Below, piece by piece: positions 15,021 through 59,834 of a DNA stretch of 64,000 bases (its first letter is position 1; each line of letters begins with the position of its first letter). Source of the stretch: Eledone cirrhosa. Taxonomy: Eukaryota. Location of the stretch: contig OZ024743.1 in assembly GCA_964016885.1 (NCBI GenBank), positions 24,180,001 to 24,244,000 on the forward strand, read 5' to 3'. The notes under the pieces were generated by a model. That model made no database searches, had not been told where the DNA came from, and saw only the letters and a list, made by a program, of their open reading frames with translations. Position numbers and translations under genes: made by a program.

Positions 15021-15090
<70 letters not shown>

Positions 15091-15508
15091 CGATATGGGA
15101 TGGAGATAAGAAGACATGCACACTAGTGGAAATCAGTTGCCTAGCAGATGTCAATATAATGATAAAAATTAACAAAAAGGAAAACATTTATGCTGAACTA
15201 ATGAGGAATCTGCAGATACTCCACTCTGACTATAAGTTTAGATGTGTATCTGTGAAAATTGGGCTCTGGTATATGTTACTTACTGCCTCAGTACAAAACT
15301 TGAGAACCAGAAAGGCCATAGCTAGTTAGAAAGTTGCAAGTACAGTTCAGTAATGGAACTGTGAAAATATGTAAGACATTTCAAAACTTCAGCATGTAAT
15401 ATCTGCACATATATGTATAGATAGAGAAACATATGCACGTGTACACACATAGCTAAAAATATACAGGTTCACACTTGCAATAACACTCATATCTGCACAC
15501 CCACACAA

Positions 15509-15595
<87 letters not shown>

Positions 15596-15720
15596 CATAT
15601 GTAGCTATTTACCTAGCTGATGTATAATTTACAATGAGGCAAGTTTCGATGTTAGAAACAGATTCTCTCTCTCTCCCTCTCCCTCTATTGGTGAACATGT
15701 ATAAAACAATAAAACCAGAA
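12700..15720 (+). mobile_element. Decayed R4-like RLE non-LTR retrotransposon (family B, older copy)
   Basis: RT motifs LDYKKAF, RGIFQGDSLS and FVDDLKLYA; C-terminal EISC...KKENIYAEL; 3' end aaaaccagaa followed by CATACATA. Many stops; left boundary uncertain. Confidence 0.85.
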
Positions 15721-15732
15721 CATACATACATA

Positions 15733-17128
15733 CTCGATTGGGCGATAGACGAAATCCGAGCAATTGATGTTAAAACTCGAAAAATTCTAAACACCGGAAA
15801 CTTCCACATCAACAGTGACATAGACCGCCTCTACTTGAAACGTAAGCAGGGAGGCAGAGGCCTAACATCAGTCCAGAGAGCATTTGAGTGTCGCATCATA
15901 TCCCTCCGACAACATTTACGAACCTCAAAGCGTACGAGCCCATCTATTGAGCAAGTCTATCTGCATGAGACAGATAACATCATGAGAGTTGGGAAGTAAC
16001 TCCTTGAAAGATATTCCCTGCGTGATAGTCAAAAACTCATACAGGGTAATTGCCCAGCAGTACCGCAGTGAATCCATGGATGGATACTGCATGCTTAGCT
16101 GCAAAAATTCATGCGAGGGTATGTTGCCAGGAAGCTCCAAGGTAAGAGTAATATAGATAAGCAAAGTAGTCTATCTTGAACCAACAACCGCTATATTGGC
16201 TCCCACTTTGAAGGATACGCTTTTGCAATCCAAGAACAGGAAATCAAACAAAATACCTGATTCACAAAAGAGATAGGGATGCAGGCAAAACAGTAGATGT
16301 GATAACAAGTGCAGACTCTGCAGAATTAACAACGCAGATGTCACATGTCATAAGCAGCTGTCCAAAGATGTCATCACGGTAATATCTACCTATGAGGCAT
16401 GTTGTAGTGGCCAAAACACTGTACAATGCAATCCGTAGAAAAGAAAGCCCCGATAATAAACACATTAAAAGCTACAGTAATGTGGAAGACATACATATAT
16501 ACATAATATGAAAGAGTACTGGTGGAATGTTCCAGTAAAAACCCCAATCAAATGCAGGCATAACAGACCAGGTATAATGATATGGGACAGGGAAAAGAAG
16601 GCATGCACAGTAGTGGACGTTAGCTGTCCAGCAGATGCCAATATAATATCAAAGATTAGCGAAAAAGGAGAATATCTATGCATAACTAATGATAAATCTA
16701 CTGATACTCCACCCTGACTATACCTTTAGATTTATGCCTGTGATTATTGGGGCACTGGGATATGTTAGTAACTGCCTCAGTACAATTCTTGAGAAGCTGG
16801 GCTTCACAAAAACAGACAGAAAGAACATGACTAGTTAGGAAATTACAAGTACAATAAATGGAACAGAAAAATATGTAAAACATTCCAAATGTCTGCATCT
16901 AATAACTGCATATACACTTGTACAGATATAAAGAATATGCACCTGCTCACATACAACTCAAAACATCCATATCCACACATACAATAACATCCATACCTAC
17001 ACATGCATGCATACAGACATGCAGACATATCTACCTAGTTAATGTTGTGTAATTGAGAGTCTTGTATCTATGTTAGAAACCGACTCTCTCTATTGGCAAA
17101 CATTTGTGAAATTATAAAACCCGAACAA
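15733..17128 (+). mobile_element. 5'-truncated R4-like RLE element (family B)
   Basis: Collinear with 54002-55409 (IDRLYLKRKQGGRGL, CRHNRPGIMIWD, VDVSCP); flanked by CATA repeats. Confidence 0.9.
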
Positions 17129-17405: not shown

Positions 17406-20400
17406 TTAATAATATCCATAACATGTGTTTGCGTAACTCATAACTTGGCAAGGGTTGTGCATCGTTTCAGAGTTCTGATAAGGGGAGTAAGCGTAATTTG
17501 TAGTAGGACTGGGATTGTAATGGGAGTAAGCGTAATTTGTAGTAGGAGTGGGATCGTAAGGGGAGTAAGCGTAATTTGTAGTAGGAGTGGGATTGTAAGG
17601 GGAGTAAGCGTAATTTGTAGTAGGAGTGGGATCGTAAGGGGAGTAAGCGTAATTTGTAGTAGGAGTGGGATCGTAAGGGGAGTAAGCGTAATTTGTAGTA
17701 GGAGTGGGATTGTAAGGGGAGTAAGCGTAATTTGTAGTAGGAGTGGGATTGTAAGGGGAGTAAGCGTAATTTGTAGTAGGAGTGGGATTGTAAGGGGAGT
17801 AAGCATAATTTGTAATAGGAATGGGATTGTTAGGTGCTATCGGTGTTTCCCTAATATCATAAGACTCTGTATTACCACAGCAATCTGTGATCACAAGTGA
17901 ACATATATTGTCATCATTTTCTTCGATTTCAATATTAATATTTTGTAGACAGTTTTCTTGCGCACCATGAGGGAGGGTTATTGATATTTCATATTCCTCC
18001 ACCTCGTCATCATCTGAATTCTCTATCATTAATGCTGGTGTAACTTGATATTCCTCCGTCTGTAATACATATTCTGGTGGAGAATGTTCTATTTCATTAA
18101 TATATAGTAGTGGAAGAGATGCCTCAGCTTTAAATTCCGATGAAGTAGGCTTTTCTTTTGTATATGTTGGTGAAACAAACTGTTCAACCCCTTTGAGTTT
18201 ACCGACTGATTCGATCGGTTTTTCCTTGAATTCAGATTCTATAAGTTCTTCTTTGCATTCAGTTAAAAATGTCGGTTCTATGGACTCTACTATCACTTCG
18301 GATGTATCAGCTTGCTCTATAGACAGTGTTTTGAATTCTGGTATATCTGCTGATTCTATAGGTTCGTCTTTGACTCCAGGTATATGTACCGGTTCTATAG
18401 GTTCTTTCACTTCAGGTGTATCCATTGATTTTATAGACTCTGCTTTGACTTCAGGTGTATCCATTGATTTTATAGACTTTGATTTGATTTCAGGTGTATC
18501 CATTGATTTTATAGACACTGCTTTGACTTCAGGTGTATCCATTGATTTTATAGACTTTGATTTGATTTCAGGTGTATCCATTGATTTTATAGACACTGCT
18601 TTGACTTCAGGTGAATCCATTGATTTTATAGACTTTGCTTTGATTTCAGGTGTATCCATCGATTTTATAGACTTTGCTTTGATTTCAGGTGTATCTGCTG
18701 GTTTTATAGTTTCTATTTCCACTTCAGTTTTATAATCCGAAGCGCGTTCATCCTTAACCTCAACCGGCGTAATGGTCTCCACTATCTCCAATTGAGACTC
18801 TTCTGGTGCATCATCTATCTCTATTAATATATCCGTCGCTTCCGGTATTTCAACTATTGGTGGTGTAGTACCAATATATTCCATTGCTAATTGTTGTTCA
18901 ACTTCTTCAATAACATCAACTATTGGTGGTGTAGTACCAATATATTCCATTGCTAATTGTTGTTCAACTTCTTCAATAACATCAACTATCTGGGCTGAGT
19001 GAACATTATTTTTGCTTGCAACTTCCGTTAGTGTTTTCTCTTGCAGTATGCCAGTCATACTCTCCTGGTAATTTGTGTTACCTGGATTGATGTATTGCTC
19101 AACGGCATCAGTATATATTGTGGGAGCTGGGTGAATACATATATGATCGCCACAAAAATCTGATATCAGTACATGTTCATAACAAGAATTTGAAATCTGT
19201 ACACATTCACAACAATCTGATACTTGTACATGTTCTACAGTTTCACAACAGTCTGATACTGGTATACATTCACAACAACACTCTGGGGCCTGTACAATTT
19301 CACAACAGTCTGATACTGGTACAGGTTTATGACAACAGTCTGGTACCAATACAGTTTCACACCAGCAGTCTGCTACTTGTATAGATTTATGACAACAGTA
19401 ACAGCAGTGGTTCGAAACTATCGATGCAATTTGTCGTTCAAAAATCTTCTCCGCCATTCCTAGGATTTTATTTATTACCAATGCTAACATAGCCTCTTCC
19501 TTCACTCCTGCTTCTATAGATTCTTTTTTTACTTCTGTTACTATAGGCTCTAAGTGATCTGTTACTATAGGCTCTAAGTGATCTGTTACTATAGGCTTTA
19601 AGTGATCTGTTACTATAGGCTCTAAGTGATCTGTCTGTGTAAACTTTTCAGTGATGCTTGCTTTATCTGCTGGTTCTGTAGGCTTTACCTTCAACTCATC
19701 TCTCTGTATGGACTGTTCGCTGATGCCCACTTTATCTTCTGTTTCTGTAGGTTTTTTGACGTCTGTTAACTTCACCGATTTTACAGATACTTTTTTGTCA
19801 TTAGTTATATCTACTGGCTTCATAGATACTTCGCCGATTTCTTGTGTATCTGCCCGTTTTATAGATTCTTCTTTGATTTCTGGTATATCTGCTGGTTCTA
19901 TATCCTCTTCTTTTACTTTATTTGTATCTGCCTCCTTTATTCGCTTTTCTGGTACTAATGCCCTATAATTCTCTGTAATATTACCTTCACTAGCTGTCCC
20001 ATCAGACATTTCGTTCGTCAGTGATGATGTATAAAGACCGTCCTTTGATGATTGTTCAAAGCGTGCAGCTTTCGATTTTGTTTTCTCTTGCAGTAAACCA
20101 GTCATATAGTTCTGATAGTATTCTTTATTTGGATCGATGTATTGTACGACGTTACCGGTAAATAACGTGCCGTCTGTATAAATGTATGTTTGATCACAAC
20201 AATTATCTGATATCATTACATGATCACAACAACAATCTGATACCGGTATATGTTGACAATAAGATTGTGATACTGATGGACCTCCACAACAGCCAATCTT
20301 CTCTCGCATTGACACCGGTAGGCAATTATTTCCTCTGACTTCGAACACGGCTAGTTGTTCACAGCTGCATCTCCTGGTGTCCAAAAATCTTATTGATCCA

Positions 20401-26759: not shown

Positions 26760-27305
26760 CCAGTCTCTCTCAGATGATATTTATACTGTAAATATACCCC
26801 TTGTCCTTTATGCACAAGAAATAGGAAGAATATGTTATTGGTTCACAGGAGGCAGAAACACTAAGCTGGAAGACATGAACGTTTATGCCAAAAAATTATA
26901 AATGTTATGGCGAAAAACCTTGACCTGTAACAACATCCTCGAAAGAATGGATTTTAGTCAGGATAAATATCCCTATATAATTTTAAAACGAAAAAAAAAA
27001 ACTACAAGCTATTCTAGAAACATCTCTATGAATGGCCTGACTGTTTGGCCGACTTTGACTGCTTCAGATACTTACGGTAGTTGAAAATATATGCTATGAT
27101 GGAATTTCTAACAAGGAACGTGTACCCAGGGAATATAACATCCAATATCGTTTTCTGAAACGTAGATAAGATCCGAGTCATTGATGCTAAAACTCGAAAA
27201 GTTCTAACCGACCCCGGAAAGTTCCACATAAACAGTAACATAGACGGCCTCTACTAGAAGCATAAATACGGCAGCAGAGGCTTAACATCAGTTCAATCAA
27301 CATTC

Positions 27306-27309
<4 letters not shown>
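26760..27309 (+). mobile_element. Decayed R4-like fragment (a related piece lies at about 25330-25450)
   Basis: Aligns by eye with 13855-14490 and 54010-54160 (e.g. ttccacataaacagtaacatagacggcctctac). Confidence 0.7.
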
Positions 27310-33555: not shown

Positions 33556-35975
33556 CCACCTATATACCTACCTACGTACCTAATTACCTACTATCTTACC
33601 TACCTACCTACCTACCTACCTACCTACCTACCTACCTACCTACCTACCTACCTACCTACCTACCAACCTACCTACCAACCTACCTACCTACCTACCTACC
33701 TACCTACCTACCTACATACCTACCTACCTACCTACCTACTTACCTACCAACCTACCTACCTACCTACCAACCTACCTACCTACCTACCAACCTACCTACC
33801 AACCTACCTACCAACCTACCTACCTATCTACCTACCCATTACCTACCCACCTAACTACCTACCTACCTACCTACCTACCTACCTACCTACCAACCTACCT
33901 ACCTACCCATCTACCTACCTACCTACCTACCTACCTACCTACCTACCTACCAACCTACCTACCTACCTACCTACCCACCTACCTACCTACCCACCCACCT
34001 ACCTACCTACCCACCTATCTACCTACCCACCTACCTACCTACCTACCTACCTACCTACCTACCAACCTACCTACTTACCAGCCTGCCTGCCTACCTACCT
34101 ACCTACCTACCTACCCACCTACCTATCTACCTACCTACCTACCAACCTACATACCTACCTACCTACCTACCTACCAGCCTGCCTGCCTACCTACCTACCT
34201 ACCTACATACCTACCCGCCTACCTACCTACTTACCTACATACCTACATACCTACCCGCCTACCTACCTACCTACCTACCTACCTACCTACCTACCTACCC
34301 ACCTACCTACCTACCCACCTACCTACCTACCTACCCACCTACCTACCTACCCACCTACCTACCTACCTACCTACCAACCTACCTACCTACCAGCCTGCCT
34401 GCCTACCTACCTACCTACCTACCTACCTACCTACCTACCCACCTACCTACCTACCTACCTTCCTACCTACCAACCTACATACCTACCTACCTACCTACCT
34501 ACCTACCTACCTACCAACCTACCTACCTACCCATCTACCTACCTACCTACCTACCTACCTACCAACCTACCTACCTACCTACCTACCTACCTACCTACCT
34601 ACCTACCTACCTACCTACCAACCTACCAACCTACCTACCAACCTACCTACCAACCTACCTACCTATCTACCTACCCATTACCTACCCACCTAACTACCTA
34701 CCTACCAACCTACCTACCTACCTACCTACCTACCTACCATCCTACCTACCTACCTACCTACCTACCTACCTACCTACCTACCAACCTACCTACCTACCTA
34801 CCTACCTACCTACCTACCTACCTACCTACCAACCTACCTACCTACCCACCTACCTATCTACCTACCCACCTAACTACCTACCTACCAACCTACCTACCTA
34901 CCCACCTACCTACATACCTACCCGCCTACCTACCTACCTACATACCTACCCGCCTACCTACCCGCCTACCTACCTACCAACCTACCTACCTACCCACCTA
35001 CCTACATACCTACCCGCCTACCTACCTACCTACCTACCTACCTACCTACCAACCTACCTACCTACCCACCTACCTACATACCTATCCGCCTACCTACCTA
35101 CCTACCTACATACCTACATACCTACCCGCCTACCTACCTACCTACCTACCTACCTACCTACCCACCTACCTACCTACCCACCCACCTACCTACCTACCCA
35201 CCTACCTACCTACCCACCTACCTACCTACCTACCTACCAACCTACCTACCTACCAGCCTGCCTGCCTACCTACCTACCTACATACCTACCCACCTACCTA
35301 CCTACCTACCTACCTTCCTACCTACCAACCTACATACCTACCTACCTACCTACCTACCTACCTACCTACCTACCTACCTACCTACCAACCTACCTACCTA
35401 CCCATCTACCTACCTACCTACCTACCTACCTACCTACCTACCAACCTACCTACCTACCTACCTACCTACCTACCTACCTACCCACCTACCTACATACTTA
35501 CCCGCCTACCTACTAACCTACCTACCTACCTACCCGCCTACCTACCTACCCACCTACCTACCTACCTACCTACCTACCTACCTACCTACATACCTACCCA
35601 CCTACCTACCTACCTACCTACCTACCTATCCGCCTACCTACCTACCTACCTACCTACCTATCTACCTACCCACCTACCTACCTACCTACCTACCTACCTA
35701 CCACCTACCTACCTACCTACCTACCTACCTACCTACCTACCTACCTACCTACCCACCCACCCACCTACCTACCTACCTACCTACCTACCAATCTACCTAC
35801 CAACCTACCTACCTACATACCTACCTACCTACCTACATACCTACCAATCTACCTACCAACCTACCTACCTACCTACCTACCTACCTACCTACCTACCTAC
35901 CTACCTACCTACCTAACTACATACCCACCTACCTACGTACCCACCTACCTACCTACCTACCTACCTACCTACCTA
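33556..35975. repeat. (CTAC)n tetranucleotide array, about 2.4 kb
   Basis: Directly visible, with recurring variant blocks. Confidence 0.98.
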
Positions 35976-36149
35976 CAAAATTGCAAATCGTGTTCTATAT
36001 TCTTTTTGTTATACTTGATCTCAATATTTAAAAATTCGAACAATCATTTCTCTTGTATGAATGACAAATGTATTTATACTGCCACACACTCTATTAAAGG
36101 AGGAATGTGCCATCGTGGTATTCATCCCGTTATGTTCAGTCAGAGTCTC

Positions 36150-36402: not shown

Positions 36403-39400
36403 TTAACTCATTACTTGGTTATAGTTTGGCATCATCCAAGAGTTCATGTATGGTGAATAAACATAATTTGTAATATGATTCGTATAAGGTTGTGTAATTC
36501 TTCTTTGCATAATATCACAAGACCCTGTCAAACGACCATAGCAATCTCTATACACATGTCTATATCCTGCTCCATTAATTTCGTCTATGATCTCAATATG
36601 TAGATTTTGTAGACAATACCCACGTCTGGAATAAGGTAATGATACCAATATTTCATATTCGTCCCCGTTGCCAGAATTTAGCAGAATTCTGTTGAGTCCT
36701 TCACATATTTCAAATGTTCTTGATAACGGATTCACGTGTTGACTTACCGGTGGATAAGAATATTCATTCCTTTTTGTCGCTTGTGATGATAAATTTACTG
36801 GTAGAAGACGCTCTTCTTTTACTTTATTTTTAAATACTGGTGGATCAGATGCTTCACTGACCTCAGTTAGAAATACAGGTTCAGCACGTCTTTCATGTTC
36901 AGCCGCATCTGATGATTCTATAAGATCTTTTTTTATTCTATTTGTACCGGGTCGTTTCCTCGTTTTTCTTTTTACTTTAGTTGTTTCTGCTGACTTCATC
37001 GACTTTTTCTTGGCTTCTCGTGTATCTATTGGCTGTACAGAATGTTTTCGTTTTTTTTTTATTTTAGTTCTTCCATCGCTTTTTATATCATCTTCGTTCG
37101 CAGATCTCGATTTTGTTTTCTCTTCTTGTAAATTTGTCTCCTGGTTAATTGCGTCGTCTGAATCGATGTATTCAGTGACTTTTCCATGTGCGCGATTACA
37201 ACAGTGATCGCAACATTCTGATTCATATATAGGTTCTCTAAAACAGTCTGATGCTGATATAGGTTTATTCCAACAGGCCATCTCATAGCTTTGTTTCAAA
37301 CAAGGAAATGAAGTACAATAGATTTTTGGCAGATCAGTTTTCTTCACTTTCCCTTTGACTTTTTTTCTCTTTGCTGTTGGTTCTTCTTCGAAATCAATTT
37401 TATCCTTTGTCTTAGTAGAGTTTTCGCTGATCTCTTCTGTTTCTGTAGGCTCTTCATATATCTCTGACGTACTTTCTTCTGCTAAAGACTTGTCCTGCAT
37501 CTCTGACTCATCTACTTCTTCTAAAGACTCGTCCTGCATCTCTGACTCATCTACTTCTTCTAAAGACTCGTCCTGCATCTCTGATTTATCTACTTCTTCT
37601 AAAGACTCGTCCTGCATCTCTGATGTATCTACTTCTTCTAAAGACTCGTCCTGCATCTCTGATGTATCTACTTCTTCTAAAGACTCGTCCTGCATCTCTG
37701 ATGTATCTACTTCTTCTAAAGACTCGTCCTGCATCTCTGATTTATCTGCTTCTTCTAAAGACTCGTCCTGCATCTCTGATTTATCTGCTTCTTCTAAAGA
37801 CTTCGATGCAACTGAAAGCCTCACCTTCATCTTGATTTTATCATCCCTCGGCTTAGACTTGTATATGATGCCTGATTTATTTGCAGTTATTGTAGGCTCC
37901 ACCTTCAAGTTAATGTTATCGTCTGTCTGTTTAGACTTGTACTTGATGCCTGCTTTATCTGCAGTTATTGTAGGCCTCACCTTCAAGTTAATGTTATCGT
38001 CTGTCTGTTTAGACTTGTACTTGATGCCTGCTTTATCTGCAGTTATTGTAGGCCTCACCTTAAAGTTAATGTTATCGTCTGCCTGTTTAGACTTGTACTT
38101 GATGCCTGCTTTATCTGCAGTTATTGTAGGCCTCACCTTCAAGTTAATGTTATCGTCTGCCTGTTTAGACTTGTACTTGATGCCTGCTTTATCTGCAGTT
38201 ATTGTAGGCCTCACCTTCAAGTTGATTTTATCGTCTGTCTGTTTAGACTTGTAGTTGATGCCTGTTTTATCTGCAGTTTTTGTAGGCCTCACCTTCAAGT
38301 TGATTTTATCGTCTGTCTGTTTAGACTTGTAGTTGATGCCTGCTTTATCTACAGTTTTTGTAGGCCTCACCTTCAAGTTGATTTTATCATCCCTCAGTTT
38401 AGACTTGTAGTTGATGCCTGCTTTATCTGCAGTTTTTGTAGGCCCCACCTTCAAGTAAATTTTATCGTCTGCCTGTTTCGACTTGTAGTTGATGCCTGCT
38501 CTATCTGAAATTGTTGTAGGCCTCACCGTCAAGTTGATTTCATCGTCTTTCTTAGTCGACTTATCGTTCATGCCTGTTTTACCTGCCGTTTTTGTAGGCC
38601 TCACCGTCAAGTTGATTTCACCGTCTGTCTGAGTCGACTTAGCTTTCATGCCTGTTTTACCTGCAGTGTTTGTAGGCCCCACCTTCAAGTTGATTTCACC
38701 GTCTGTCTGAGTCGACTTATCGTTCATGCCTGTTTTACCTGCCGTTTTTGTAGGCCTCACCGTCAAGTTGATTTCACCGTCTGTCTGAGTCGACTTAGCT
38801 TTCATGCCTGTTTTACCTGCAGTGTTTGTAGGCCCCACCTTCAAGTTGATTTCACCGTCTGTCTGAGTCGACTTATCGTTCATGCCTGCTTTACCTGCCG
38901 TTTGTGTAGGCTTCAGCGTCAAGTTGATTTCACCGTCTGTCTGAGTCGACTTAGCTTTCATGCCTGTTTTACCTGCAGTGTTTGTAGGCCCCACCTTCAA
39001 GTTGATTTCACCGTCTGTCTGAGTCGACTTATCGTTCATGCCTGCTTTATTTACAGTTTGTGTAGGCTTCAGCGTCAAGTTGATTTCACCGTCTCTCTGT
39101 TTCGGCTTGTCCTTCATCCCTGCTCCATATGCAGATGTTGTACCCTTCACCTTCAAGTTGAATTCATCGTCTCTCTGTTTCGACTTGTTCATGCCTGCTT
39201 TACTTGCAATTTTTGTAGGCCTCGCCGTCAAGTTGATTTCATCGTCTCTCTGTTTCGGCTTGTCCTTCATCCCTGCTTCATATGCAGATGTTGTAGGCCT
39301 CACCCTCAAGTTGATTTCATCGTCTCTCTGTTTCGGCTTGTCCTTCATCCCTGCTTCATCTGCAGATGTTGTAGGCCTCACCCTCAAGTTGATTTCATCG

Positions 39401-41169
39401 TCTCTCTGTTTCGGCTTGTCCTTCATCCCTGCTTCATCTGCAGATATTGTAGGCCTCACCCTCAAGTTGATTTCATCGACTCTCTGTTTCATCTTGTCCT
39501 TCGTCCCTGCTTCATCTGCAGATGTTGTAGGCCTCACCCTCAAGTTGATTTCATCGTCTGTCTGTTTTGACTTGTTCATGCCTGCTTTACTTGCAATTTT
39601 TGTAGGCCTCGCGGTCAAGTTGATTTCATCGTCTCTCTGTTTCGACTTGTTCATGCCTGCTTTACCTGCAGTTTTTGTAGGCGTCACCCTCAAGTTGATT
39701 TCATCGTCTGTCTGTTTCGACTTGTTCATGCCTTCTTCATCTGCAGTTTCTTTAGGCTCCTCTTTCACTTCACTTGTATCTGATTTTTTTATGTATGTTT
39801 CTGCTGATCGTGCGTTATAATCTTTTTTAAATTTATATTGGCTATCTTGTGTGTAGTCCTTTAAACCTAGTTGTGAATCAGTAAGTTGTGTCTCCGTTAC
39901 ATAATATGGAAAATCCATGTCGTGTAATTCTGAATCAAACAGCTGTGGTCCTGTCCCATGTCCCTTCCTGACATCAGTTGATTGCATTGCCTGATTTTGC
40001 ATACTAACACGTGACCTCTTTGATATCCCAATATTGGCGTCTAGTGCTTGTTGTTCAGATCCTACAGTACATTCAACTATCTGGCCTGATTTTTTATATT
40101 TCTGTTCAATACTACTTTCGCTTTCTCTATCATGTTTGATTTCAACTTTCGATATTTTTTTCCTCTCCGGTAAATCAACCTCACAATTCTGATATATATC
40201 CCCAGGTGACTCAATGTATTGCGCGACTTCACTGTCAGCTAATGTATGGTCTATTTGAATGAATGTTTGATCGCCACTATCTTTCATCTTTACATGTCTA
40301 CCGCAACTTTCTGATACCGATACATGTTCGTAATTATTTGATATTGATACATGATCTGTTGCCAGTGCACGTTCACAAATATCTAATACCGGTTCAGTTT
40401 CACAACAATAATCTAATACAGGTTCCCTTTCACAACAATATTCTGATATCGGTACACCTTCAAAACTATCTGACGCTGGTATACGGTCGCAAGAGCAGTC
40501 TAACAATGGTGCAATTGTGTGACAGTCTGGCATTTTCTCCGAAATTGACACTGCTGTTTGCTCTTGTAGTAAATCTGTCTTATTTTCCTGATAGTATTCG
40601 TTATTTGGACTCGTGTGTTTTATGACTTCATGGGTAAATATTGTTTGGCCAGTGTCAACACATGTTTGATCGTAATAATTATCTGATACCGGCACCTGTT
40701 GACAAGTACACTCCGAAAGTAGTTCAGTTTCACAATACTCTGGTATCTCCCCTCGCATTGAACAAGTTTTTCCTGTGATCTCTGGTAAGGTTCGAAGTTC
40801 ACAATTCTCATTTGTGATGTCCAAAGATGCTGCAGATCTACCATTGTCACTCGAATCCCCCGAAAACCTATGTCGTACATGTGGTGTTTCTATTACTGTC
40901 AGAGCTTCACAAGGGTCTCTTACAGTATTTGAAGCTGAGTTGTCTGAATGTGTTAGCGGTCTAGAGACGTGTTCCGCAATCACTGAAACCGTGCATGGAT
41001 CAGAGGTCGTCCTTACAATATCCGAACAAGGCTCTGGTTCTTGTCTATCATTCACTGAATCTACTTGGCTACAATTCTGTTTTTTTGTAGCTGAGGCGAT
41101 TAATCTTCGACAGTTCGCTTCCGTGATCTCCGAAAGAGTTAGTGGTGAATAATTATCGGACGAAGACAT
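36403..41169 (-). CDS. Paralogue 2: 1588-aa protein with a Cys-rich N-region, Lys/Thr-rich 26-27-aa repeats and acidic 13-aa (ESLEEVDTSEMQD)n repeats
   Basis: Uninterrupted 4.8-kb ORF; the N-terminus aligns with paralogue 1 (SPxTLSxIT..N.RRLIASA); C-terminal YEI...CLQNLHIEI and TNYVYSPY. Confidence 0.85.
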   Translation of the reverse strand: MSSSDNYSPLTLSEITEANCRRLIASATKKQNCSQVDSVNDRQEPEPCSDIVRTTSDPCTVSVIAEHVSRPLTHSDNSASNTVRDPCEALTVIETPHVRHRFSGDSSDNGRSAASLDITNENCELRTLPEITGKTCSMRGEIPEYCETELLSECTCQQVPVSDNYYDQTCVDTGQTIFTHEVIKHTSPNNEYYQENKTDLLQEQTAVSISEKMPDCHTIAPLLDCSCDRIPASDSFEGVPISEYCCEREPVLDYCCETEPVLDICERALATDHVSISNNYEHVSVSESCGRHVKMKDSGDQTFIQIDHTLADSEVAQYIESPGDIYQNCEVDLPERKKISKVEIKHDRESESSIEQKYKKSGQIVECTVGSEQQALDANIGISKRSRVSMQNQAMQSTDVRKGHGTGPQLFDSELHDMDFPYYVTETQLTDSQLGLKDYTQDSQYKFKKDYNARSAETYIKKSDTSEVKEEPKETADEEGMNKSKQTDDEINLRVTPTKTAGKAGMNKSKQRDDEINLTARPTKIASKAGMNKSKQTDDEINLRVRPTTSADEAGTKDKMKQRVDEINLRVRPTISADEAGMKDKPKQRDDEINLRVRPTTSADEAGMKDKPKQRDDEINLRVRPTTSAYEAGMKDKPKQRDDEINLTARPTKIASKAGMNKSKQRDDEFNLKVKGTTSAYGAGMKDKPKQRDGEINLTLKPTQTVNKAGMNDKSTQTDGEINLKVGPTNTAGKTGMKAKSTQTDGEINLTLKPTQTAGKAGMNDKSTQTDGEINLKVGPTNTAGKTGMKAKSTQTDGEINLTVRPTKTAGKTGMNDKSTQTDGEINLKVGPTNTAGKTGMKAKSTQTDGEINLTVRPTKTAGKTGMNDKSTKKDDEINLTVRPTTISDRAGINYKSKQADDKIYLKVGPTKTADKAGINYKSKLRDDKINLKVRPTKTVDKAGINYKSKQTDDKINLKVRPTKTADKTGINYKSKQTDDKINLKVRPTITADKAGIKYKSKQADDNINLKVRPTITADKAGIKYKSKQADDNINFKVRPTITADKAGIKYKSKQTDDNINLKVRPTITADKAGIKYKSKQTDDNINLKVEPTITANKSGIIYKSKPRDDKIKMKVRLSVASKSLEEADKSEMQDESLEEADKSEMQDESLEEVDTSEMQDESLEEVDTSEMQDESLEEVDTSEMQDESLEEVDKSEMQDESLEEVDESEMQDESLEEVDESEMQDKSLAEESTSEIYEEPTETEEISENSTKTKDKIDFEEEPTAKRKKVKGKVKKTDLPKIYCTSFPCLKQSYEMACWNKPISASDCFREPIYESECCDHCCNRAHGKVTEYIDSDDAINQETNLQEEKTKSRSANEDDIKSDGRTKIKKKRKHSVQPIDTREAKKKSMKSAETTKVKRKTRKRPGTNRIKKDLIESSDAAEHERRAEPVFLTEVSEASDPPVFKNKVKEERLLPVNLSSQATKRNEYSYPPVSQHVNPLSRTFEICEGLNRILLNSGNGDEYEILVSLPYSRRGYCLQNLHIEIIDEINGAGYRHVYRDCYGRLTGSCDIMQRRITQPYTNHITNYVYSPYMNSWMMPNYNQVMS

Positions 41170-50014: not shown

Positions 50015-50329
50015 CACAAACACACAAACACACACACACACACACACAAACACACAAACACATACACATACACATACACACACACAGATATGCATATTTT
50101 GATATTTTGCTGTTCAGGAACTCAGACAAGCCTGTATGTATGTACAACAGCAAGCGTGCGTGTTAGCATATATGTGCTTGTATGTGTGTATATATTTTAT
50201 TTTTTGTTTGTTCTTCTCATTAAAATTCTTAGGATTTCTCTCGAATAGAGAATCAGATTCTAACACTGAAACATTGCTCTTTGAATAGAATTTAGACATC
50301 AACTAAGTAATTATGTATGTCTGTCTCAA

Positions 50330-51050
50330 TGTCTGTATGTATGCAGGTATGGTTTACGTTTGGTTTTGTAGGTTTTGAATTATATGCGCGTATATACATA
50401 TCTTTCTATATCTACATGCGTGTATATGCTGGTGTTACATAGTAAATATTTCTGGTATGTTTTATGTTTTTACAGCTCTAAAAATATATCCTTCTAGTAA
50501 CTTTCCTAATTAAGTTCCTCTATCTAGTTCTATGAAGTTCAGCTTCTCACTATTTGTGCTGAAGGAGTTACTAACATTCCAAATGCCCCATTGGTTACAG
50601 GTATTAATCTGATGCAGATTACTCATGTGTTCGGCATAAAGTTCACCGTTTCATTAATCTTTCACGTTGGATTTCATCTGTTGGGCAACTAATGTACACT
50701 ACTGTACTTGCCTTTTTTCTTTGTCTCATCTCATGGTGTTTGGTCTCTTTGTTTACCAAGTGTTTTAATTCCTATTTAGTCGCTTCTTGTTGCAAATTCA
50801 GTCATCATTGCCTAAATATATAGCACATTCATCATGAGATACCGAAAAACGAAACGCCAGTTCATTGATAGACCAGTTTCGAAATTGGTTTGTAGTTTTG
50901 CCTTGCTATATAATCATACAGGAATATTTATCCTAGACAAGGACCATCCTTATATCGTTCCAGACTGTCGTAAACATGTCAAGTTTTTTTTCATACAGCT
51001 TTTACTTTTCAGATCGTCCACAAAGAGGCTATGTGATAGATTACTATTTT
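50330..51050 (-). mobile_element. Highly decayed, internally deleted R4-like copy
   Basis: Reverse complement has HSLFVDDLK and segments matching 54900-55120. Confidence 0.65.
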
Positions 51051-51461
51051 AGTCAATTATGTTAGAAATAGTCGGGCTGGAGACTCGATCGCGTGGTAGA
51101 ACCACTGGGATTGAAGGACACGTAGCCTTTTTCAGGGCATTCTTCTAGGAGAAGACAACTCAGGAAACTGGGATAACTCTGACATAAAACCTGCGGCTCA
51201 GTAGTTACCGATGAATGATGTTGATCTTTTCTTCTTTTCGGGTTGGAGCTACTGTCTCTCAGAGAGTGAGATTGGCTCAGTGCACAGCCTTTCCTCAATT
51301 AAAAAAAAATATTCATGCATAGGCATTGCACGATAGAATTAATTAATAATTATAAATAATGTTATATCGTGCAATGGCCATACTTGATAACGAGGGGGCA
51401 GCCATCATGTATGTATGTATGTATGTATGTATGTATGTATGTATGTATGTATGTATGTATG

Positions 51462-51580
51462 TTTATCTCTTTCTCTTAATTTCGAGTACATTTTTTTTGA
51501 CCGGCCACCTTCCTGGTGGCAAGGTTGTAAAAGAAAAGAAATTGTCATCCCTTGAATCGCAAGAATGTTTTGCAAATTTT
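51462..51580 (-). mobile_element. Extreme 3' end of R4-like family A, inside (TATG)n
   Basis: Near-exact reverse complement of about 52373-52489, with TATG repeats on both sides. Confidence 0.9.
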
Positions 51581-51940
51581 ATGTATGTATGTATGTGTAC
51601 TTACATATTGCACGGCTTTTCGCTTATAATATATTTGATCTGTAGATCTATAAATGTGATGTGGATTTGTTTCTACCTTATATTTTCATTATATCGTAGA
51701 TGCATGGCAACATTTATTGCACACCATAGCTTGTATTTTATGATCACTAGAATTGCACTGCTTACTATACATAAACAGCTGTTCATACGTGCCTACTTAC
51801 CTACCTACCTGTCTGCATTCATACATACATACATACATGCATACATACATACATACATACATACATACATACATACATACATACATACATACATACATAC
51901 ATACATACATACATACATACATACATACATACATACGTAC

Positions 51941-52489
51941 ACAACCATCTGGAACGCACTTCGGAAAACAAAATTAACAACAAACGAGGAAGAATATATT
52001 GAGACAGATGGCACTAAGGAATACTGGTGGAACCTGAAAATAAAAACTGCCACCAAATTAAAGCACAACCGGCCTGATATTGTAGTTTGGGACCACACAT
52101 TGAAAACGTGTTCTGTTGTGGAGATCAGCTGCCCACTTGATGTAAACGTTGTCAGAAAAATACAGGAGAAGGAGGACATCTACGGACCATTGATGAGGAG
52201 TTTACAAATCCAGTATCCAAGATACACCTTTAGCTTCATACCCATCATTATTGGTGCTACGGGTTATATACCAACCCGCTTGGACCAAAGTATGACTGAA
52301 CTTGGATTTGCGGACAAAAAGCGCAGCTCCCTAATTCATAGTCTACAAATGGCTGCGATAGCTGGCACCTTCAAAATTTGCAAAACATTCTTGCGATTCA
52401 AGGGATGACAATTTCTTTTCTTTTACAACCTTGCCACCAGGAAGGTGGCCGGTCAAAAAAATATACTCAAAATTAAGAGAAAGAGAAAA
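51941..52489 (+). mobile_element. 5'-truncated R4-like RLE element, family A
   Basis: KHNRPDIVVWD...VVEISCP...KEDIYGPL RLE motifs; (CATA)n on both sides. Confidence 0.9.
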
Positions 52490-52603
52490 CGTACATACAT
52501 ACGTACGTACATACATACATGCATACATACATACGTACATACATACGTACATGCATACATACATACGTACATACATACATACATACATACATACATACAT
52601 ACA

Positions 52604-52635
<32 letters not shown>

Positions 52636-53480
52636 CACGAAATACCTGATTTACAAAAGAGATAGGGATGCAGGCAAAACACCTAGATGTGATAACAAGT
52701 GCAGACTCTGCAGAACTAACATCGAGGATATCACCCATGTCATCAGCAGCTGTCCAAAGATGTCATCGCGGTACTATCTACCTATGAGGCATGATGTAGT
52801 GGCCAAAACACTGTACACTCTAAAAAGATAGCCCCGATAATAAACACATTAAAAGCTACAGCAATTAGGAAGAAATCCATGTACATAATAAGAAAGAGTA
52901 CCTGTGGAATATTCCAGCAAAAACCCCAATAAAATGCAGGCATAACAGACCAGATATTATGATATGGGACAGGGAGAAGAAAGCATGCACAGTAGTGGAA
53001 ATTAGCTGCCCAGCAGATGCCAATCTAATCTCAAAGATTAGTGAAAAGGAGAATATTTATGCAGAACTAATGAGAAATCTGCAGATACTCCACCCTGATA
53101 ACACCTTCAGATTTATGCCTGTGGTTATTGGGGCACTGGGGTATGTTAGTAACTGCCTCAAGGCAAATCTTGAGAAGCTAGGGTTCACAGGAACAGAAAG
53201 AACACAATTAGTTAGGAAATTACAAGTACGATCCATTAATGGAACAGTAAAAATATGTAAAACATTCCAAAAATGTTGCATCTAATAACTGCATAAACAC
53301 ATGTACAGATGCAAAGCATATACACATGCACACATACAACTCAAAACATACACATCCACACATACAATAACATCCATATCTACACATGCATGCATACATA
53401 CATATCTACCTAGTTGAGTATCTATGTTAGAAACCGACTCTCTATTGGTAAAACTTTGTGAAATTATAAAACCAGAAGAA
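52636..53480 (+). mobile_element. 5'-truncated R4-like element, family B
   Basis: CRLC...HVISSC...RHD Zn knuckle plus RLE; nearly identical to 54523-55409; (CATA)n flanks. Confidence 0.92.
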
Positions 53481-53660
53481 CATACATACATACATACGTA
53501 CATACATACATACGTACGTACGTACGTGTATACATACATACATACATACATACATGCATACATGCATGCATACATACATACATACATACATACATACATA
53601 CATACATACATACATACATACATACATACATACATACATACATACATACATACATACATA

Positions 53661-55409
53661 AAAATCTTGACCTGGTTTCAACGTTCTCAAAGGATATAGG
53701 AATAGAGTTTGGCCAAGATAAATGCTCATACATGACTGTAAAGCGGGGAAAAACAGCAACCCAATCTAGCAACATTGTCATCAATGGTCTAACTGCTTCA
53801 CCGATATCTGATGAGGACTGCTACAGATACCTGGGGATAGATGAGAACATATCCTATAATGGTATCTGTAATAAAGAACGCGTAACCAGGGAATACTACA
53901 CCCGATTAAGAAAGATATGGTCATCGGAACTCTCTGCGCAAAACAAAACAGTGGCGCACAATGTGTTTGCTGTGCCTGTCCTAACACCAACGTTTGGAAT
54001 ACTCAATTGGACGATAGACGAAATCCGAGCAGTTGATGTTGGAACTCGAAAAATACTGAACAACACCGGAAACTTCCACATCAACAGTGACATAGACCGC
54101 CCTTACTTGAAACGTAAGCAGGGAGGCAGAGGCCTAATATCAGTCCAGACAACATTTGAATGTCGCATCATATCTCTCAGACAACATCTACGAACCTCGA
54201 AGCGTAGGATCCCGCTTCTCGAGCAAGTCTATCTGCATGAAACAGATAAGATCATGAGAGTTGGGAAGGAACTCCTTGAGAGATATTCCCTGTGTGATAA
54301 TCAAAAACTCACACCCAGGGATGTCGCTCAGCAGTATCGCAGTGAATCCATGGATGAAAAACTGCATGCCTATCAGCAAAAAATCATGCATGGATATGTT
54401 GCCAGGAAGCTCCAGACTGAAAGTAATATAGATAAGGAAAGTAGTCTATCTTGGACCAACAACCGCTATATTGGCTCCCACTTTGAAGGATACGCTTTTG
54501 CAGTCCAAGAACAGGGGATTAGCACGAAATACCTGATTCACAAAAGAGATAGGGATGCAGGCAAAACACCTAGATGTGATAACAAGTGCAGACTCTGCAG
54601 AACTAACATCGAGGATATCACCCATGTCATCAGCAGCTGCCCAAAGATGTCATCGCGATACTATCTACCTATGAGGCATGATGCAGTGGCCAAAACACTG
54701 TACAATGCAGTTCGTAAAAAAGATAGCCCCGATAACAAACACATTAAAAGCTACAACAATGTGGAAGACAGCCATGTACATAATATGAAAGAGTACTGGT
54801 GGAATGTTCTAGTAAAAACCCCAATAAAATGCAGGAATAACAGACCAGATATTATGATATGGGACAGGGAGAAGAAAACATGCACAGTAGTGGAAATTAG
54901 CTGCCCAGCAGATGCCAATATAATATCAAAGATTAGTGAAAAGGAGAATATTTATGCAGAACTGATGAGAAATCTGCAGATACTCCACCCTGACTATACC
55001 TTCAGATTTATGCCTGTGATTATTGGGGCACTGGGATATGTTAGTAACTGCCTCAATACAAATATTGAGAAGCTAGGCTTCACAGGAACAGAAAGAACAC
55101 AACTAGTTAGGAAATTACAAGTACAATCCATTAATGGAACAGTAAAAATATGTAAAACATTCCAAAAATGTTGCATCTAATAACTGCATATACACATGTA
55201 CAGATACAAAGCATATACACATGCACACATACAACTCAAAACATACACATCCACACATACAATAACATCCATATCTACACACACATGCATGCCTACATAC
55301 ATATCTACCTAGTTGATGTGTAAATTCCAAGGAGAGAGTCTTGTGTCTATGTTAGAAACCGACTCTCTCTCTATTGGTAAAACTTTGTGAAATTATAAAA
55401 CCAGAAGAA
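53661..55409 (+). mobile_element. 5'-truncated R4-like element, family B, with an open 482-aa frame (53732-55180)
   Basis: YRYLG (RT end), GGRGL, CRLC..H...C, RHD, NRPDI, EISCP, KENIY; (CATA)n flanks. Confidence 0.93.
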
Positions 55410-55770
55410 CATACATACATACATACATACATACATGCATACATACATACATACATACATGCATACATACATACATACATACATGCATACATACATATAT
55501 ACATACATACATACATACATACATACATACATACATACATACATACTTGCATGCTTGCCTGTATCTCTACCTGCTTACTCACCAGCGAGTCCATCTACCA
55601 AGCTTAAAATGGGGAGTAACTCTCGATGACTTTTGTTAATAGAAACAAACAATCAAATTTTTTAATCGTTTGCGATACTCGCATTGTTTTGCTTAACAAT
55701 AACATTTGAAAAGTCAAGCAATCATGTTTTGTGTAAGCAGCACTTAAATGATAAAACAAAAATTACATTT

Positions 55771-55863: not shown

Positions 55864-58800
55864 TCATATGTGATGTACAAACCCATGGGCGAAGCATGGT
55901 GAACAAATGCTATTTGTATTATGAGTGATGTTATATGGTGTCTGTGTTGTTGGTGTCTCTGTTGTTTTCATAACTTCATAAGATGTTACTGTTTTTCCTG
56001 AGCAATCTTCGATTTCAATATGTAGATTTTGTAAGCAATGATGATGAGAGTGTTCAGTGAGCATTAATTCAAATTCGTTCTCGCGGCCATAATCTAATGT
56101 TCCAATCAGTGTTGTCTTAGAGACTTCAGATATGTTATTTGTTCGTGATAGTGAACATGTATTTACCTGTGAATATTCGCATGTTGCAATTGGAAATGCT
56201 GATGGAGCATGCTCGCATATCATTTGTGGTATATCTACTAGTTGAATACTCTCTTCTACTTCAGTTATAAATAATTGTGGAAGAGAAGCTTGTTCTATAA
56301 GCCCTTCGCTTTCGTTTGTATCGACTGTTATTATCAATTCTTCATCAACTTCAGTTATATCCTCTGCTTCTATAAGATATTCTTCTACTTCAGGTATAGC
56401 TACCGTTTCTAAAAGTTCTATAGGATATTCTTCGACTTCAGCTATAGCTACTGTTTCGAAAATTTCTATAGGATATTCTTCGACTTCAGCTATAGCTACT
56501 GTTTCGAAAGGTTCTATAGGATATTCTTTGACTTCAGCTATAGCTACTGTTTCGAAAAGTTCTATAGGATATTCTTCGACTTCAGCTGTAGCTACTGTTT
56601 CGAAAGGTTCTCTAGGATATTCTTCGACTTCAGCTATAGCTACTGTTTTTAAAAGTTCTATAGGATATTCTTCGACTTCACTTGTATGTTTCGGTTCTAT
56701 AGACTCTTTTACGATTTCAGTTATATCCACTGCTTCTATAGGATCTTCTTCGGCTTTAGCTGTAACTGCCAGTTCTATAGGCACTTCTTCAACTTCAGTT
56801 AAATCAACTTGTTCTATAGCTTCTTCTTCGACTTCAGTTTTATCCACTGGTCCTATAGGCTCTTCCTTCATTTCAGGTGTATATGCCGGTCCTATAGGCT
56901 CTTTCTCCACTTCAGGTGTATATGCCGGTTCTATAGGCTCTTCCTCCACTTCAGGTGTATATGCCGGTTCTATAGGCTCTTCCTCCACTTCAGGTGTATA
57001 TGCCGGTTCTATAGGCTCTTCCTTCACTTCAGGTGTATATGCCGGTTCTATAGGTTCTTCCTTCACTTCAGGTGTATGTGTCGGTACCATAGCTTCTTCG
57101 TTCATTTCAGCTTTAATTTTCGGTTCTATAGGCTTTTCCTCCACTTCAGGTGTATATGACGGTTTTATGTGCTCTTCCTTCACTTCAGGTGTATATGCCA
57201 GTTTTATAGGCTCTTTCTTCACTTCAGGTGTATATGCCGGTTTTATAGGCTCTTCCTTCACTTCAGGTGTATATGCCGGTTTTATAGGCTCTTCCTTCAC
57301 TTCGGGTGTATATGCCGGTTTTATAGGCTCTTTCTTCACTTCAGGTGTATATGCCGGTTTTATAGGCTCTTTCTTCACTTCAGGTGTATATGCCGGTTTT
57401 ATAGGCTCTTTCTTCACTTCAGGTGTATATGATGGTTTTATAGGCTTTTCCTTCACTTCAGGTGTATATGCCGGTTTTATAGGCTCTTTCTTCACTTCAG
57501 GTGTATATGTCGGTTTTATAGGCTCTTCCTTCACTTCAGGTGTATATGCCGGTTTTATAGGCTCTTCCTTCACTTCAGGTGTATATGCCGGTTTTATAGG
57601 CTCTTCCTTCACTTCAGGTGTATATGCCGGTTTTATAGGCTCTTCCTTCACTTCGGGTGTATATGCCGGTTTTATAGGCTCTTTCTTCACTTCTGGTGTA
57701 TATGCCGGTTTTATAGGCTCTTCTTTCACTGCAGGTGTATATGCTGGTTTTATAGGCTCTACCTTCACTTCAGGTGTAAATGCCGGTTTTATAGGCTCTT
57801 CCTTCACCTCAGGTGTATATGACGGTTTTATAGGCTTTTCCTTCACTTCAGGTGTATATACCGGTTTTATAGGCTCTTCCTTCACTTCAGGTATATATGC
57901 CGGTTTTATAGGCTCTTCTTTCACTTCAGGTGTATATGCCCGTTTTATAGGCTCTTCTTTCACTTCAGGTATATATGCCGGTTTTATAGGCTCTTCTTTC
58001 ACTTCAGGTGTATATGCCGGTTTTATAGGCTCTTCTTTCACTTCAGGTGTATATGCCGGTTTTATAGGCTCTTCCTTCACTTCAGGTGTATATGCCGGTT
58101 CTATAGGCTCTTCCTCCACTGGAGGTGTATATGCCGGTTCAATAGGCTCTTCCTCCACTTCAGGTGTATATACCGGTTCTATAGGCTTTTCCTTCACTTC
58201 AGGTGTATATACCGGTTCTATAGGCTCTTCCTCCACTTCAGGTGTATATGCCGGTTCTATAGGCTCTTCCTCCACTTCAGGTGTATATGCCGGTTCTATA
58301 GGTTCTTCGTTCACTTCAGGTGTATGTGTCGGTACCATAGCTTCTTCGTTCACTTCAGCTTTAATTTTCGGTTCTATAGGCTTTTCCTCCACTTCAGGTG
58401 TATATGCCGGTTCTATAGGTTCTTCGTTCACTTCAGGTGTATATGCCGGTGCCATAGCTTCTTCGTTCACTTCAGCTTTAATTTTCGGTTTTATAGGCTC
58501 TTTCTCCACTTCAGGTGTATATGCCGGTTCTATAGGTTCTTCGTTCACTTTAGGTGTATATGCCGGTTTTATGGGCTTTTCCTTCACTTTAGGTGTATAT
58601 GCCAGTTCCGTAGGTTCTTCTTTCACTTCAGCTATATAAACGGGAGCGCGTTCATCCACAACCTCAACCGGCATAATGGGATCATAATTTATATCAGATA
58701 TTGGAAATATTGCTAGGGCTGGAGATGACGAAATGGGTTCAACTATGTGACATGTTTCAATAATTTCCTCACTCTGTAGTAGCTCCAGCTCCAAGATTTC

Positions 58801-59799
58801 CTCGGTCTCCACTATCTCCAATTGGGACTCTTCTGGTGTACCACCTATCTCTAATAATATATCCGTTACTCCTTCCGATATTTCACATATTGGTGGTGTA
58901 GTATCAATATATTCTATTGCTAAGTCTTGTTCCACTTCTTCAGTAATATCAACTATCTGGGCTGAGCAAATATCAATTTTACTTGCAACTTCCGTCAATA
59001 TGTCAGTGTCACTCTCCTGGTAATTTTTGTTAACTGTATCGATGTATTGCTCAGCGGCATCAGTATATATTGTGTGAGCTGGGTGAATACATATATTATC
59101 GCAACAGCAATCTGATACCAGTGTATCTTTGTACCAAGACTCCGATATCGGGACATGTTCATAACAACAGTCTGGCACCGGTACATGTTCATGACAACAG
59201 TCTGGCACCGGTACATGCTCATGAAAACAGACTGGTACCGGTACATGTTTATGACAACAGTCTGGTACCGGTACATGCTCATGAAAACAGACTGGTACCG
59301 GTACATGTTTATGACAACAGTCTGGTACCGGTACATGTTTATGACAATAACCTGGTACCGGTACATGTTTATGACAATAGCCTGGTACCGGTACATGTTT
59401 ATGACAATAGCCTGGTACCGGTCCATGTTTATGACAATAGCCTGGTACCGGTACATGTTTATGACAATAGCCTGGTACTTGTACATGTTTATGACAATAG
59501 CCTGGTACCGGTACATGTTTATGACAACAGCCTGGTACCGGTACATGTTTATAGCAATAGCCTGGTACCGGTACATGTTTATGACAACAACCTCGTCCCG
59601 GTACATGTTGATAACAACAGCTTGAATCCTTTATATATTCACAACATTCTGATACTAATGCAGGTTTACAGCTAATATCTGATACCGATCTATGTTCATG
59701 ACAACAGTTAAGAGGTGCATAGTGGCAAATTCGCATTGGGCCATGCCTCGTCATCGCTGAATACCCATGTTGTCTATGATAGTGCTCCTTGGTATTCAT
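55864..59799 (-). CDS. Paralogue 3: 1311-aa protein with His/Cys 10-aa repeats (CHKHVPVPGY)n, a long (PAYTPEVKEEPIK)n array and 15-aa acidic repeats
   Basis: Uninterrupted 3.9-kb ORF; CIHPAHTIYTDAAEQYI...TTPPI closely matches paralogue 1; C-terminal CLQNLHIEIEDCSG. Confidence 0.85.
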   Translation of the reverse strand: MNTKEHYHRQHGYSAMTRHGPMRICHYAPLNCCHEHRSVSDISCKPALVSECCEYIKDSSCCYQHVPGRGCCHKHVPVPGYCYKHVPVPGCCHKHVPVPGYCHKHVQVPGYCHKHVPVPGYCHKHGPVPGYCHKHVPVPGYCHKHVPVPGYCHKHVPVPDCCHKHVPVPVCFHEHVPVPDCCHKHVPVPVCFHEHVPVPDCCHEHVPVPDCCYEHVPISESWYKDTLVSDCCCDNICIHPAHTIYTDAAEQYIDTVNKNYQESDTDILTEVASKIDICSAQIVDITEEVEQDLAIEYIDTTPPICEISEGVTDILLEIGGTPEESQLEIVETEEILELELLQSEEIIETCHIVEPISSSPALAIFPISDINYDPIMPVEVVDERAPVYIAEVKEEPTELAYTPKVKEKPIKPAYTPKVNEEPIEPAYTPEVEKEPIKPKIKAEVNEEAMAPAYTPEVNEEPIEPAYTPEVEEKPIEPKIKAEVNEEAMVPTHTPEVNEEPIEPAYTPEVEEEPIEPAYTPEVEEEPIEPVYTPEVKEKPIEPVYTPEVEEEPIEPAYTPPVEEEPIEPAYTPEVKEEPIKPAYTPEVKEEPIKPAYTPEVKEEPIKPAYIPEVKEEPIKRAYTPEVKEEPIKPAYIPEVKEEPIKPVYTPEVKEKPIKPSYTPEVKEEPIKPAFTPEVKVEPIKPAYTPAVKEEPIKPAYTPEVKKEPIKPAYTPEVKEEPIKPAYTPEVKEEPIKPAYTPEVKEEPIKPAYTPEVKEEPIKPTYTPEVKKEPIKPAYTPEVKEKPIKPSYTPEVKKEPIKPAYTPEVKKEPIKPAYTPEVKKEPIKPAYTPEVKEEPIKPAYTPEVKEEPIKPAYTPEVKKEPIKLAYTPEVKEEHIKPSYTPEVEEKPIEPKIKAEMNEEAMVPTHTPEVKEEPIEPAYTPEVKEEPIEPAYTPEVEEEPIEPAYTPEVEEEPIEPAYTPEVEKEPIGPAYTPEMKEEPIGPVDKTEVEEEAIEQVDLTEVEEVPIELAVTAKAEEDPIEAVDITEIVKESIEPKHTSEVEEYPIELLKTVAIAEVEEYPREPFETVATAEVEEYPIELFETVAIAEVKEYPIEPFETVAIAEVEEYPIEIFETVAIAEVEEYPIELLETVAIPEVEEYLIEAEDITEVDEELIITVDTNESEGLIEQASLPQLFITEVEESIQLVDIPQMICEHAPSAFPIATCEYSQVNTCSLSRTNNISEVSKTTLIGTLDYGRENEFELMLTEHSHHHCLQNLHIEIEDCSGKTVTSYEVMKTTETPTTQTPYNITHNTNSICSPCFAHGFVHHI

Positions 59800-59834
59800 T
59801 ATCCCAGTTGTATATTAGATTTAATTGCAATCAA

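Follow-up and report, generated by a model that had tools for sequence, protein, structure and literature searches.

Two R4/Dong-like retrotransposon families occupy CATA microsatellites in a single orientation in Eledone cirrhosa

Results

A stack of 5′-truncated elements in CATA repeats

The window analyzed here is a stretch of 64,000 nucleotides of the Eledone cirrhosa genome (contig OZ024743.1, positions 24,180,001 to 24,244,000 of the forward strand; coordinates below are those of the window). It carries 3′ portions of two families of retrotransposons with a restriction-like endonuclease, termed family A and family B, embedded in repeats of the unit CATA, which reads TATG on the opposite strand. 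A preliminary description of this DNA had recognized four 5′-truncated elements flanked on both sides by CATA repeats, three on the plus strand in (CATA)n and one on the minus strand in (TATG)n, and all four lie where it placed them. E1 (51943–52489, plus strand) is a family A copy that retains the C terminus of the endonuclease and the 3′ untranslated region (UTR); it is 99.8% identical to the full-length copy L072 and is the youngest element of the stack. Its 5′ flank is a (CATA)~31 array (51816–51941) with a pure run of 97 nt, and CGTACA is present at both of its sides. An array of CATA with CGTA and CATG variant units (52490–52635) separates E1 from E2 (52636–53480, plus strand), a family B copy whose frame is broken, and another CATA array (53481–53660) separates E2 from E3 (53661–55409, plus strand), a family B copy of 1,749 bp to which E2 is 90.9% identical with 42 gap positions. 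The 3′ flank of E3 is (CATA)~34 (55410–55546). An open frame in E3 (53660–55180; 506 aa, or 482 aa counted from the ATG at 53732) spans the end of the reverse transcriptase (RT), the thumb, a CCHC knuckle, and the PD..E endonuclease motif, and is followed by a 3′ UTR of 229 nt. The minus-strand copy, E0 (51463–51580), is a 118-bp family A 3′ end, 96.6% identical to L072, between (TATG)4 at its 5′ flank (51580–51596) and (TATG)14 at its 3′ flank (51407–51462). The 3′ junctions have the register already noted for them, GAA|CATAC in family B and AAA|C(A/G)TAC in family A.

In two respects the picture of the locus differs from the preliminary one. The repeats had been read as one microsatellite, but they form two arrays on opposite strands (51407–51596 and 51816–55546), separated by ~220 bp of nonrepeat DNA, and the stacking of A and B is confined to the second. 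Moreover, the four elements are not the full set: a fifth, family D (51063–51409, plus strand), had been overlooked beside the first array. It appears to be a nonautonomous, internally deleted derivative of an RTE-like long interspersed nuclear element (LINE) with an apurinic endonuclease (APE) and an RT, and its 3′ end enters (TATG)n, such that the (TATG)14 array is at once the 3′ flank of E0 and the tail or flank of family D.

Families A and B adjoin CATA in one orientation across the genome

A positional sample was formed from the first motif matches along contig C1, within its first 60 Mb. For family A, 70 loci gave 68 copies, of which 56 have both flanks in view and 12 run off the locus; for family B, both flanks are in view in 18 of 30 copies. 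A flank was called CATA-like when it scored at least 14/16 within 6 nt. By this measure the 5′ flank is CATA-like in 50 of the 56 family A copies and TATG in one, a strand bias of 50:1, and the family B counts are 11/18 and 0/18; at the 3′ flank, 43/56 family A copies are CATA-like. As background, 0.54% of the 56,720 positions scored in an arbitrary 200-kb genome sample gave such a match, and a local control 600 bp further upstream gave 0/49. CATA was also the best-fitting unit at 50/56 family A 5′ junctions, and TA, CA, and TAA were the best fit at none. The strand-specific, genome-wide association is real, and the two families share a target, as had been claimed from the window. Truncation points are spread over positions 1 to 3921 of 4027 and still adjoin CATA, and the repeat is present on both sides of truncated and of full-length copies. 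Had CATA stood at the 3′ end alone, with unique sequence at the 5′ flank, it would have had to be regarded as a tail encoded by the element; since the 5′ flank is CATA-like in most copies, the repeat is the target and not a tail.

The 3′ flanks lead to the same conclusion. CATAC opens this flank in 36/52 family A and 24/28 family B copies extending to the end of the reference, and the flank depends on the locus even among copies at least 99% identical, which continue into CAAAC, CACAT, CGTAC, or TACAT; such variation among near-identical copies argues against a templated tail. Across CATA gaps in loci L101–L230, neighboring A/B elements are on the same strand in 27/27 pairs, and in independent short-read contigs short family A ends are joined to (TATG)n.

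Candidate preinsertion sites were also considered. At L078, the contigs of one sample show the filled junction alone; L077 was set aside as an empty-allele site because its flank is a high-copy repeat; and paralogous empty sites sought among the extracted loci yielded repeat–repeat junctions only and no preinsertion site. An apparent microhomology at the 5′ junction (mean 2.2 vs. 0.4 nt) was discarded, the control being unmatched to BLAST end extension and the value including one outlier.

Pure CATA runs are longer upstream than downstream of family A

The pure CATA run at family A copies has a median length of 37.5 nt on the 5′ side and 14 nt on the 3′ side (n = 56, P = 0.0016), and in copies at least 98.5% identical the medians are 56 and 12 nt (n = 31, P = 3.5e-5). 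Among the first 27 pure arrays of at least 15 units on contig C1, an A or B element lies directly downstream of 8 and is absent from 19; thus, unoccupied targets exist. Genome-wide, pure CATA runs seldom exceed ~22–27 units and TA runs cluster at 80–82 nt, limits that reflect either a biological cap or an effect of assembly.

Copy number and age

In the 3.0-Gb genome, exact motif matches number 4,383 for family A, 5,570 for family B, and 24,362 for a third family, C, described below; reversed-motif controls for all three gave no match. All of the top 40 matches to the family A 3′ end are 100% identical across 300 bp, and of 12 long family A loci that were extended, six carry open reading frames (ORFs) of 1,164–1,170 aa with 98.7–99.8% nucleotide identity. 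These values indicate that family A has been recently active. The same had been proposed for the window's elements as a whole on the strength of the 482-aa frame in E3, and for family B that argument fails: E3 is 93.6–96.1% identical to five full-length B copies, and no whole ORF was found in 20 B loci, the longest being 1,023 aa. By these sequence comparisons, family B is the older of the two and the open E3 frame is a remnant. The 5′ UTR of family A occurs in two lengths that differ by ~200 nt of internal repeats (L065, L070, L135–L137, L143).

Further B-related copies lie elsewhere in the window. Two older ones on the plus strand (12669–15720, 68–73% identical to L091, and 15730–17128, 87%) are stacked over a short CATACATAC, which follows both of their 3′ ends, suggesting that the register is old. 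Decayed fragments of 66–69% identity are found at 50247–50749 (minus strand) and 26761–27308 (plus strand); (TAA)8 follows the latter and may be its own flank or the tail of a neighboring element.

Protein architecture and phylogenetic placement

Family A has a single ORF (~1,169 aa) with a central RT, which carries an FVDD motif in six copies, and a C-x2-C-x8-H-x4-C knuckle and an RPD..E motif are present in all six ORFs. In a Pfam search, the family A protein P0001 matched RVT_1 (E = 9.7e-25) and neither Exo_endo_phos, the APE domain, nor an N-terminal zinc finger; the invariant N-terminal columns (R12, Y14, W20, K47, W50, P55, and L64) contain no Cys or His. In the Protein Data Bank, R2 proteins give the best matches to P0001 both in sequence and in fold (E = 2e-34 with the full-length model). 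The motifs support a C-terminal endonuclease of the restriction-like type and an R4/Dong-like architecture, and the R4/Dong-like identity first suggested from truncated copies is likely to be correct in view of the full-length family A protein. The conserved N-terminal 75 residues model as three helices (pLDDT 83.6), and the top fold matches of this model are weak and mostly of the Myb/SANT/TRF type (best Z 6.0); the N-terminal domain is therefore predicted to be Myb-like.

Among named proteins, one from Argonauta hians comes closest to family A (65–69% identity). In a FastTree phylogeny of 64 RT regions over 428 columns, which had one RTE-like outgroup and lacked R2, NeSL, and HERO references as well as any sequence named R4 or Dong, a branch with a support of 0.999 holds A and B and excludes the Bombyx, Pediculus, and TAA-flanked sequences. 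The neighbors of this branch are the Bombyx protein XP_037866951.1, the Pediculus RT, and the TAA-flanked loci, and membership in R4/Dong is assigned on the basis of these neighbors together with the architecture. Within the branch, family A is sister to the Argonauta sequence and family B lies elsewhere, with an A–B RT identity of 55.6%; the earlier proposal of one (CATA)n lineage is thus right only in a loose sense, as A and B share a branch and are not sisters.

A metagenome scan found 80 related loci, 41 of which reach the C terminus. A repeat in (TAA)n phase comes next in 20 of these 41, and (CATA)n is the first repeat in none. The only metagenome loci of the A/B branch that reach the C terminus, L306 and L308, have no repeat of at least 4 units. 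In L306 (3090–3377) a short CATACATAG follows the 3′ UTR, a weak hint from a single copy. Rfam searches of six loci with the 5′ ends of A, B, and C gave no ribozyme, the microRNA and small nucleolar RNA hits being microsatellite noise below gathering scores; a descriptor for ribozymes like that of hepatitis delta virus (HDV) had no match in family A and only AT-rich, implausible ones in family B.

RTE-like elements share the repeats on the other strand

Locus L386 contains a frame of 1,203 aa with matches to Exo_endo_phos and RVT_1 and a weak match to C2H2, and 3′ ends of this LINE enter TATG or TA repeats. We take it to be RTE-like, from its architecture and a resemblance to elements of that type. 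Family D matches its 5′ UTR (85%, over 51063–51362 of the window) and its 3′ end (94.6%, over 51367–51420), two regions that are 3.9 kb apart in the autonomous copy L386; these matches identify D, at the level of sequence, as an internally deleted derivative of the APE–RT–C2H2 LINE. Family C (~600 nt) shows a more distant match to both regions. It is nonautonomous and retains, close to the 3′ end, a remnant of C2H2-like coding sequence (for example, in L091), and 5′-truncated copies are common.

Where A or B faces C or D across a CATA gap in loci L101–L230, the two are on opposite strands in 77/79 cases. Mixtures of TA, TG, and TATG are usual on both sides of family C (29 copies), which suggests that C copies are tenants with a looser repeat preference; they have not emerged as builders of the arrays. 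The idea that tails of C and D seed the arrays as a general rule finds no support, given that C copies, often with the same mix on both sides, are themselves inserted in repeats.

Other features of the window

On the minus strand at 55864–59814, a stop-to-stop open frame of 1,316 aa consists of 39-, 48-, and 30-bp tandem repeats with EEPIKPAYTPEVK-like units and has no Pfam match. Repeats of 39, 30, and 78 bp at 18336–19913 and 37476–40466 resemble it, and together these suggest a family of repetitive exons. Tandem arrays around a gap of 200 N, one CCA-rich (1–2710) and one of 18-bp units (2914–8535), occupy window positions 1–8535, and a (TACC)n array of 2.4 kb, much longer than the CATA arrays, lies at 33565–35976.

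Discussion

Collectively, these data are best explained if families A and B insert into (CATA)n, in one orientation, through a protein of their own that binds this repeat and introduces a nick in the TATG strand, a reading to which we assign a probability of roughly 85%. Specifically, the predicted Myb-like N-terminal domain would bind an upstream run of CATA units, and the endonuclease would place a bottom-strand nick at TATG|TATG or no more than 1 nt from it. The 3′ OH thereby exposed would prime reverse transcription on the 3′ end of the RNA, and early termination would yield the 5′ truncations. Binding upstream with a cut close to the downstream end of the run would be the simplest reading of the asymmetry in run length. 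With CATA remaining at either end of each new copy, the site can be hit again, and head-to-tail stacks build up. The other strand of these repeats would be used by co-tenants, namely an RTE-like LINE of the APE type, unrelated to A and B, together with its short derivatives.

Several observations weigh against this reading or limit its reach. The CATA 5′ flank is missing in 6/56 family A and 7/18 family B copies; two of the six A misses resemble later insertions at ATT sites, a third faces an inverted array, and the other three lack an explanation. The sample, which needs an exact 21-nt motif, favors better-kept copies. The run-length asymmetry is not significant in family B (medians 11.5 vs. 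10.5, n = 18, P = 0.42), and in 9/31 young family A copies the pure 5′ run is at most 15 nt. For the Myb-like domain, a Foldseek search with the N-terminal model gave no match at E ≤ 0.001. Nematode R4 makes a short target-site duplication. Here, 15/58 informative copies score for a duplication against 9.6 by permutation, many of them boundary offsets; no consistent duplication was found, and in several young copies the variant unit at the 3′ side is not duplicated. Finally, no empty allele was seen, and we infer that the 5′ run existed before insertion.

This last point bears on a different explanation of the polarity, in which a short CATA motif picks the site, the insertion itself builds the long 5′ run by RT slippage or template jumping, and replication slippage lengthens it. 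The strong 5′-long, 3′-short asymmetry of young family A copies speaks for such synthesis, as do copies with pure (CATA)16–21 on the 5′ side and 1–5 units on the 3′ side in TA/CA-rich surroundings (L064, L077, L156, and L163) and the recurrence, in L101 and L152, of a locus-specific word of the 3′ flank upstream of the pure run. New synthesis is unneeded, however, where pure arrays of 15–27 units with no A or B element downstream are common (19/27), and the lack of a significant asymmetry in B and the short 5′ runs of some young copies also speak against it; we consider this explanation unlikely. Far less probable is that CATA is a 3′ tail encoded by the elements and that the 5′ CATA comes from landing in earlier tails. 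Stacks are indeed frequent, with 27 A/B–A/B neighbor pairs, and CATAC opens most 3′ flanks. Yet 5′ CATA is also found in copies with nonfamily sequence beyond both arrays (L106, L133, L141, L161, and L077), the 3′ flanks of the youngest copies differ by locus and are often 1–3 units long, shorter than the 5′ runs, and for copies to land in earlier tails on a single strand, CATA targeting would already be needed.

Least credible of all, and close to negligible in our estimate, is that random insertion followed by survival in unselected, microsatellite-rich DNA, or stacks that are artefacts of assembly, produced the pattern. Microsatellites abound in this genome, with TA at 4.5% and CA at 1.0% of the 200-kb sample, yet CATA, at 0.17% of that sample, is the preferred unit at the A 5′ junctions and TA and CA never are. 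Neither chance nor survival accounts for the 50:1 strand bias; E2 and E3 differ by 9% and so are not collapsed duplicates; and the junctions are present in the independent short-read contigs.

A wider scenario can be drawn around targeting of (CATA)n by A and B, and we offer it as a doubtful one. A branch of R4/Dong, apart from the TAA-targeting members, would have switched to (CATA)n by way of its Myb-like domain and would insert in a polar manner, on the downstream side of long pure runs. New CATA units may also be written at the 5′ junction, in which case the branch would build microsatellites that it shares with the RTE-like family on the opposite strand.

Among known systems, the Dong elements (Dong of Bombyx mori, DongAg, the snail DongBg, and Dong1/2 of an ostracod) are the most similar in having a single ORF with an RT and a restriction-like endonuclease, no N-terminal zinc finger, and insertion in microsatellites (for background on the clade, PMC4640811); the RTs of A and B are ~40% identical to the Bombyx and Pediculus proteins. 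According to passages of PMC7998251, Dong targets (TAA)n in most insects, molluscs, and cnidarians, and R4/Dong proteins have a diverged N-terminal Myb/SANT-like domain. In contrast, the target of A and B is (CATA)n, and with a target other than TAA they are not Dong in the strict sense. Dong and R4 also have HDV-like 5′ ribozymes (in the excerpt of PMC3774820), whereas none was detected in A or B by Rfam or by the descriptor. R2 (R2Bm and R2Tg) supplies the best structural matches to the family A protein and has the same order of RT, CCHC, and restriction-like endonuclease, but differs in possessing N-terminal zinc fingers together with Myb and in targeting 28S rDNA (PMC7650587, in part), and the family A protein shares just 16–19% structural identity with it. 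Waldo (WaldoAg1/2 and WaldoFs1) targets ACAY microsatellites and Dong TAA ones, as stated in portions of PMC3812793; ACAY includes the ACAT/CATA unit. Waldo is an insect element with an APE-type endonuclease, of the R1 clade by the cited paper's title, whereas an APE domain is absent from A and B. Judged from their domains, A/B and Waldo thus represent a convergent target reached with unrelated enzymes.

Elements related to A and B have been annotated in octopus. Dong-R4 is described as abundant and recently active in Octopus (PMC8967140), with 5 families and 1,129 recent insertions in one account (PMC13282606) and a full-length Dong consensus in O. bimaculoides in another (PMC9115989), each taken from part of its source. 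In the passages of these three papers that were consulted, no target site is named. In abundance and recent activity the octopus elements (O. vulgaris and O. bimaculoides) are like family A, and A and B may be orthologs of the annotated families. The literature searched, a scope that leaves outside it Repbase, Dfam, subscription journals, and supplements, contained no CATA-targeting R4 element, and within that scope the preliminary suggestion that the lineage is possibly not described holds.

The degree of surprise is moderate: Dong elements as a rule target microsatellites, and ACAY was already known as a target of Waldo, which is unrelated. The findings bear on how retrotransposons with restriction-like endonucleases change targets. 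The N-terminal Myb-like domain of R4/Dong has been proposed to set specificity, and here two families 56% identical in the RT share a target that is unreported for Dong. The intact family A ORFs make domain swaps with TAA-type Dong feasible. The system accounts for much of the (CATA)n-associated nesting of repeats in a 3-Gb genome, with ~10,000 motif matches for A and B and more than 24,000 for family C, and a target can now be named for a class of LINE whose recent activity in octopus had been noted before. If the wider scenario is true, Eledone would harbor a testable retrotransposon that not only reads a tetranucleotide repeat but also extends it, and of which intact, near-identical full-length copies exist.

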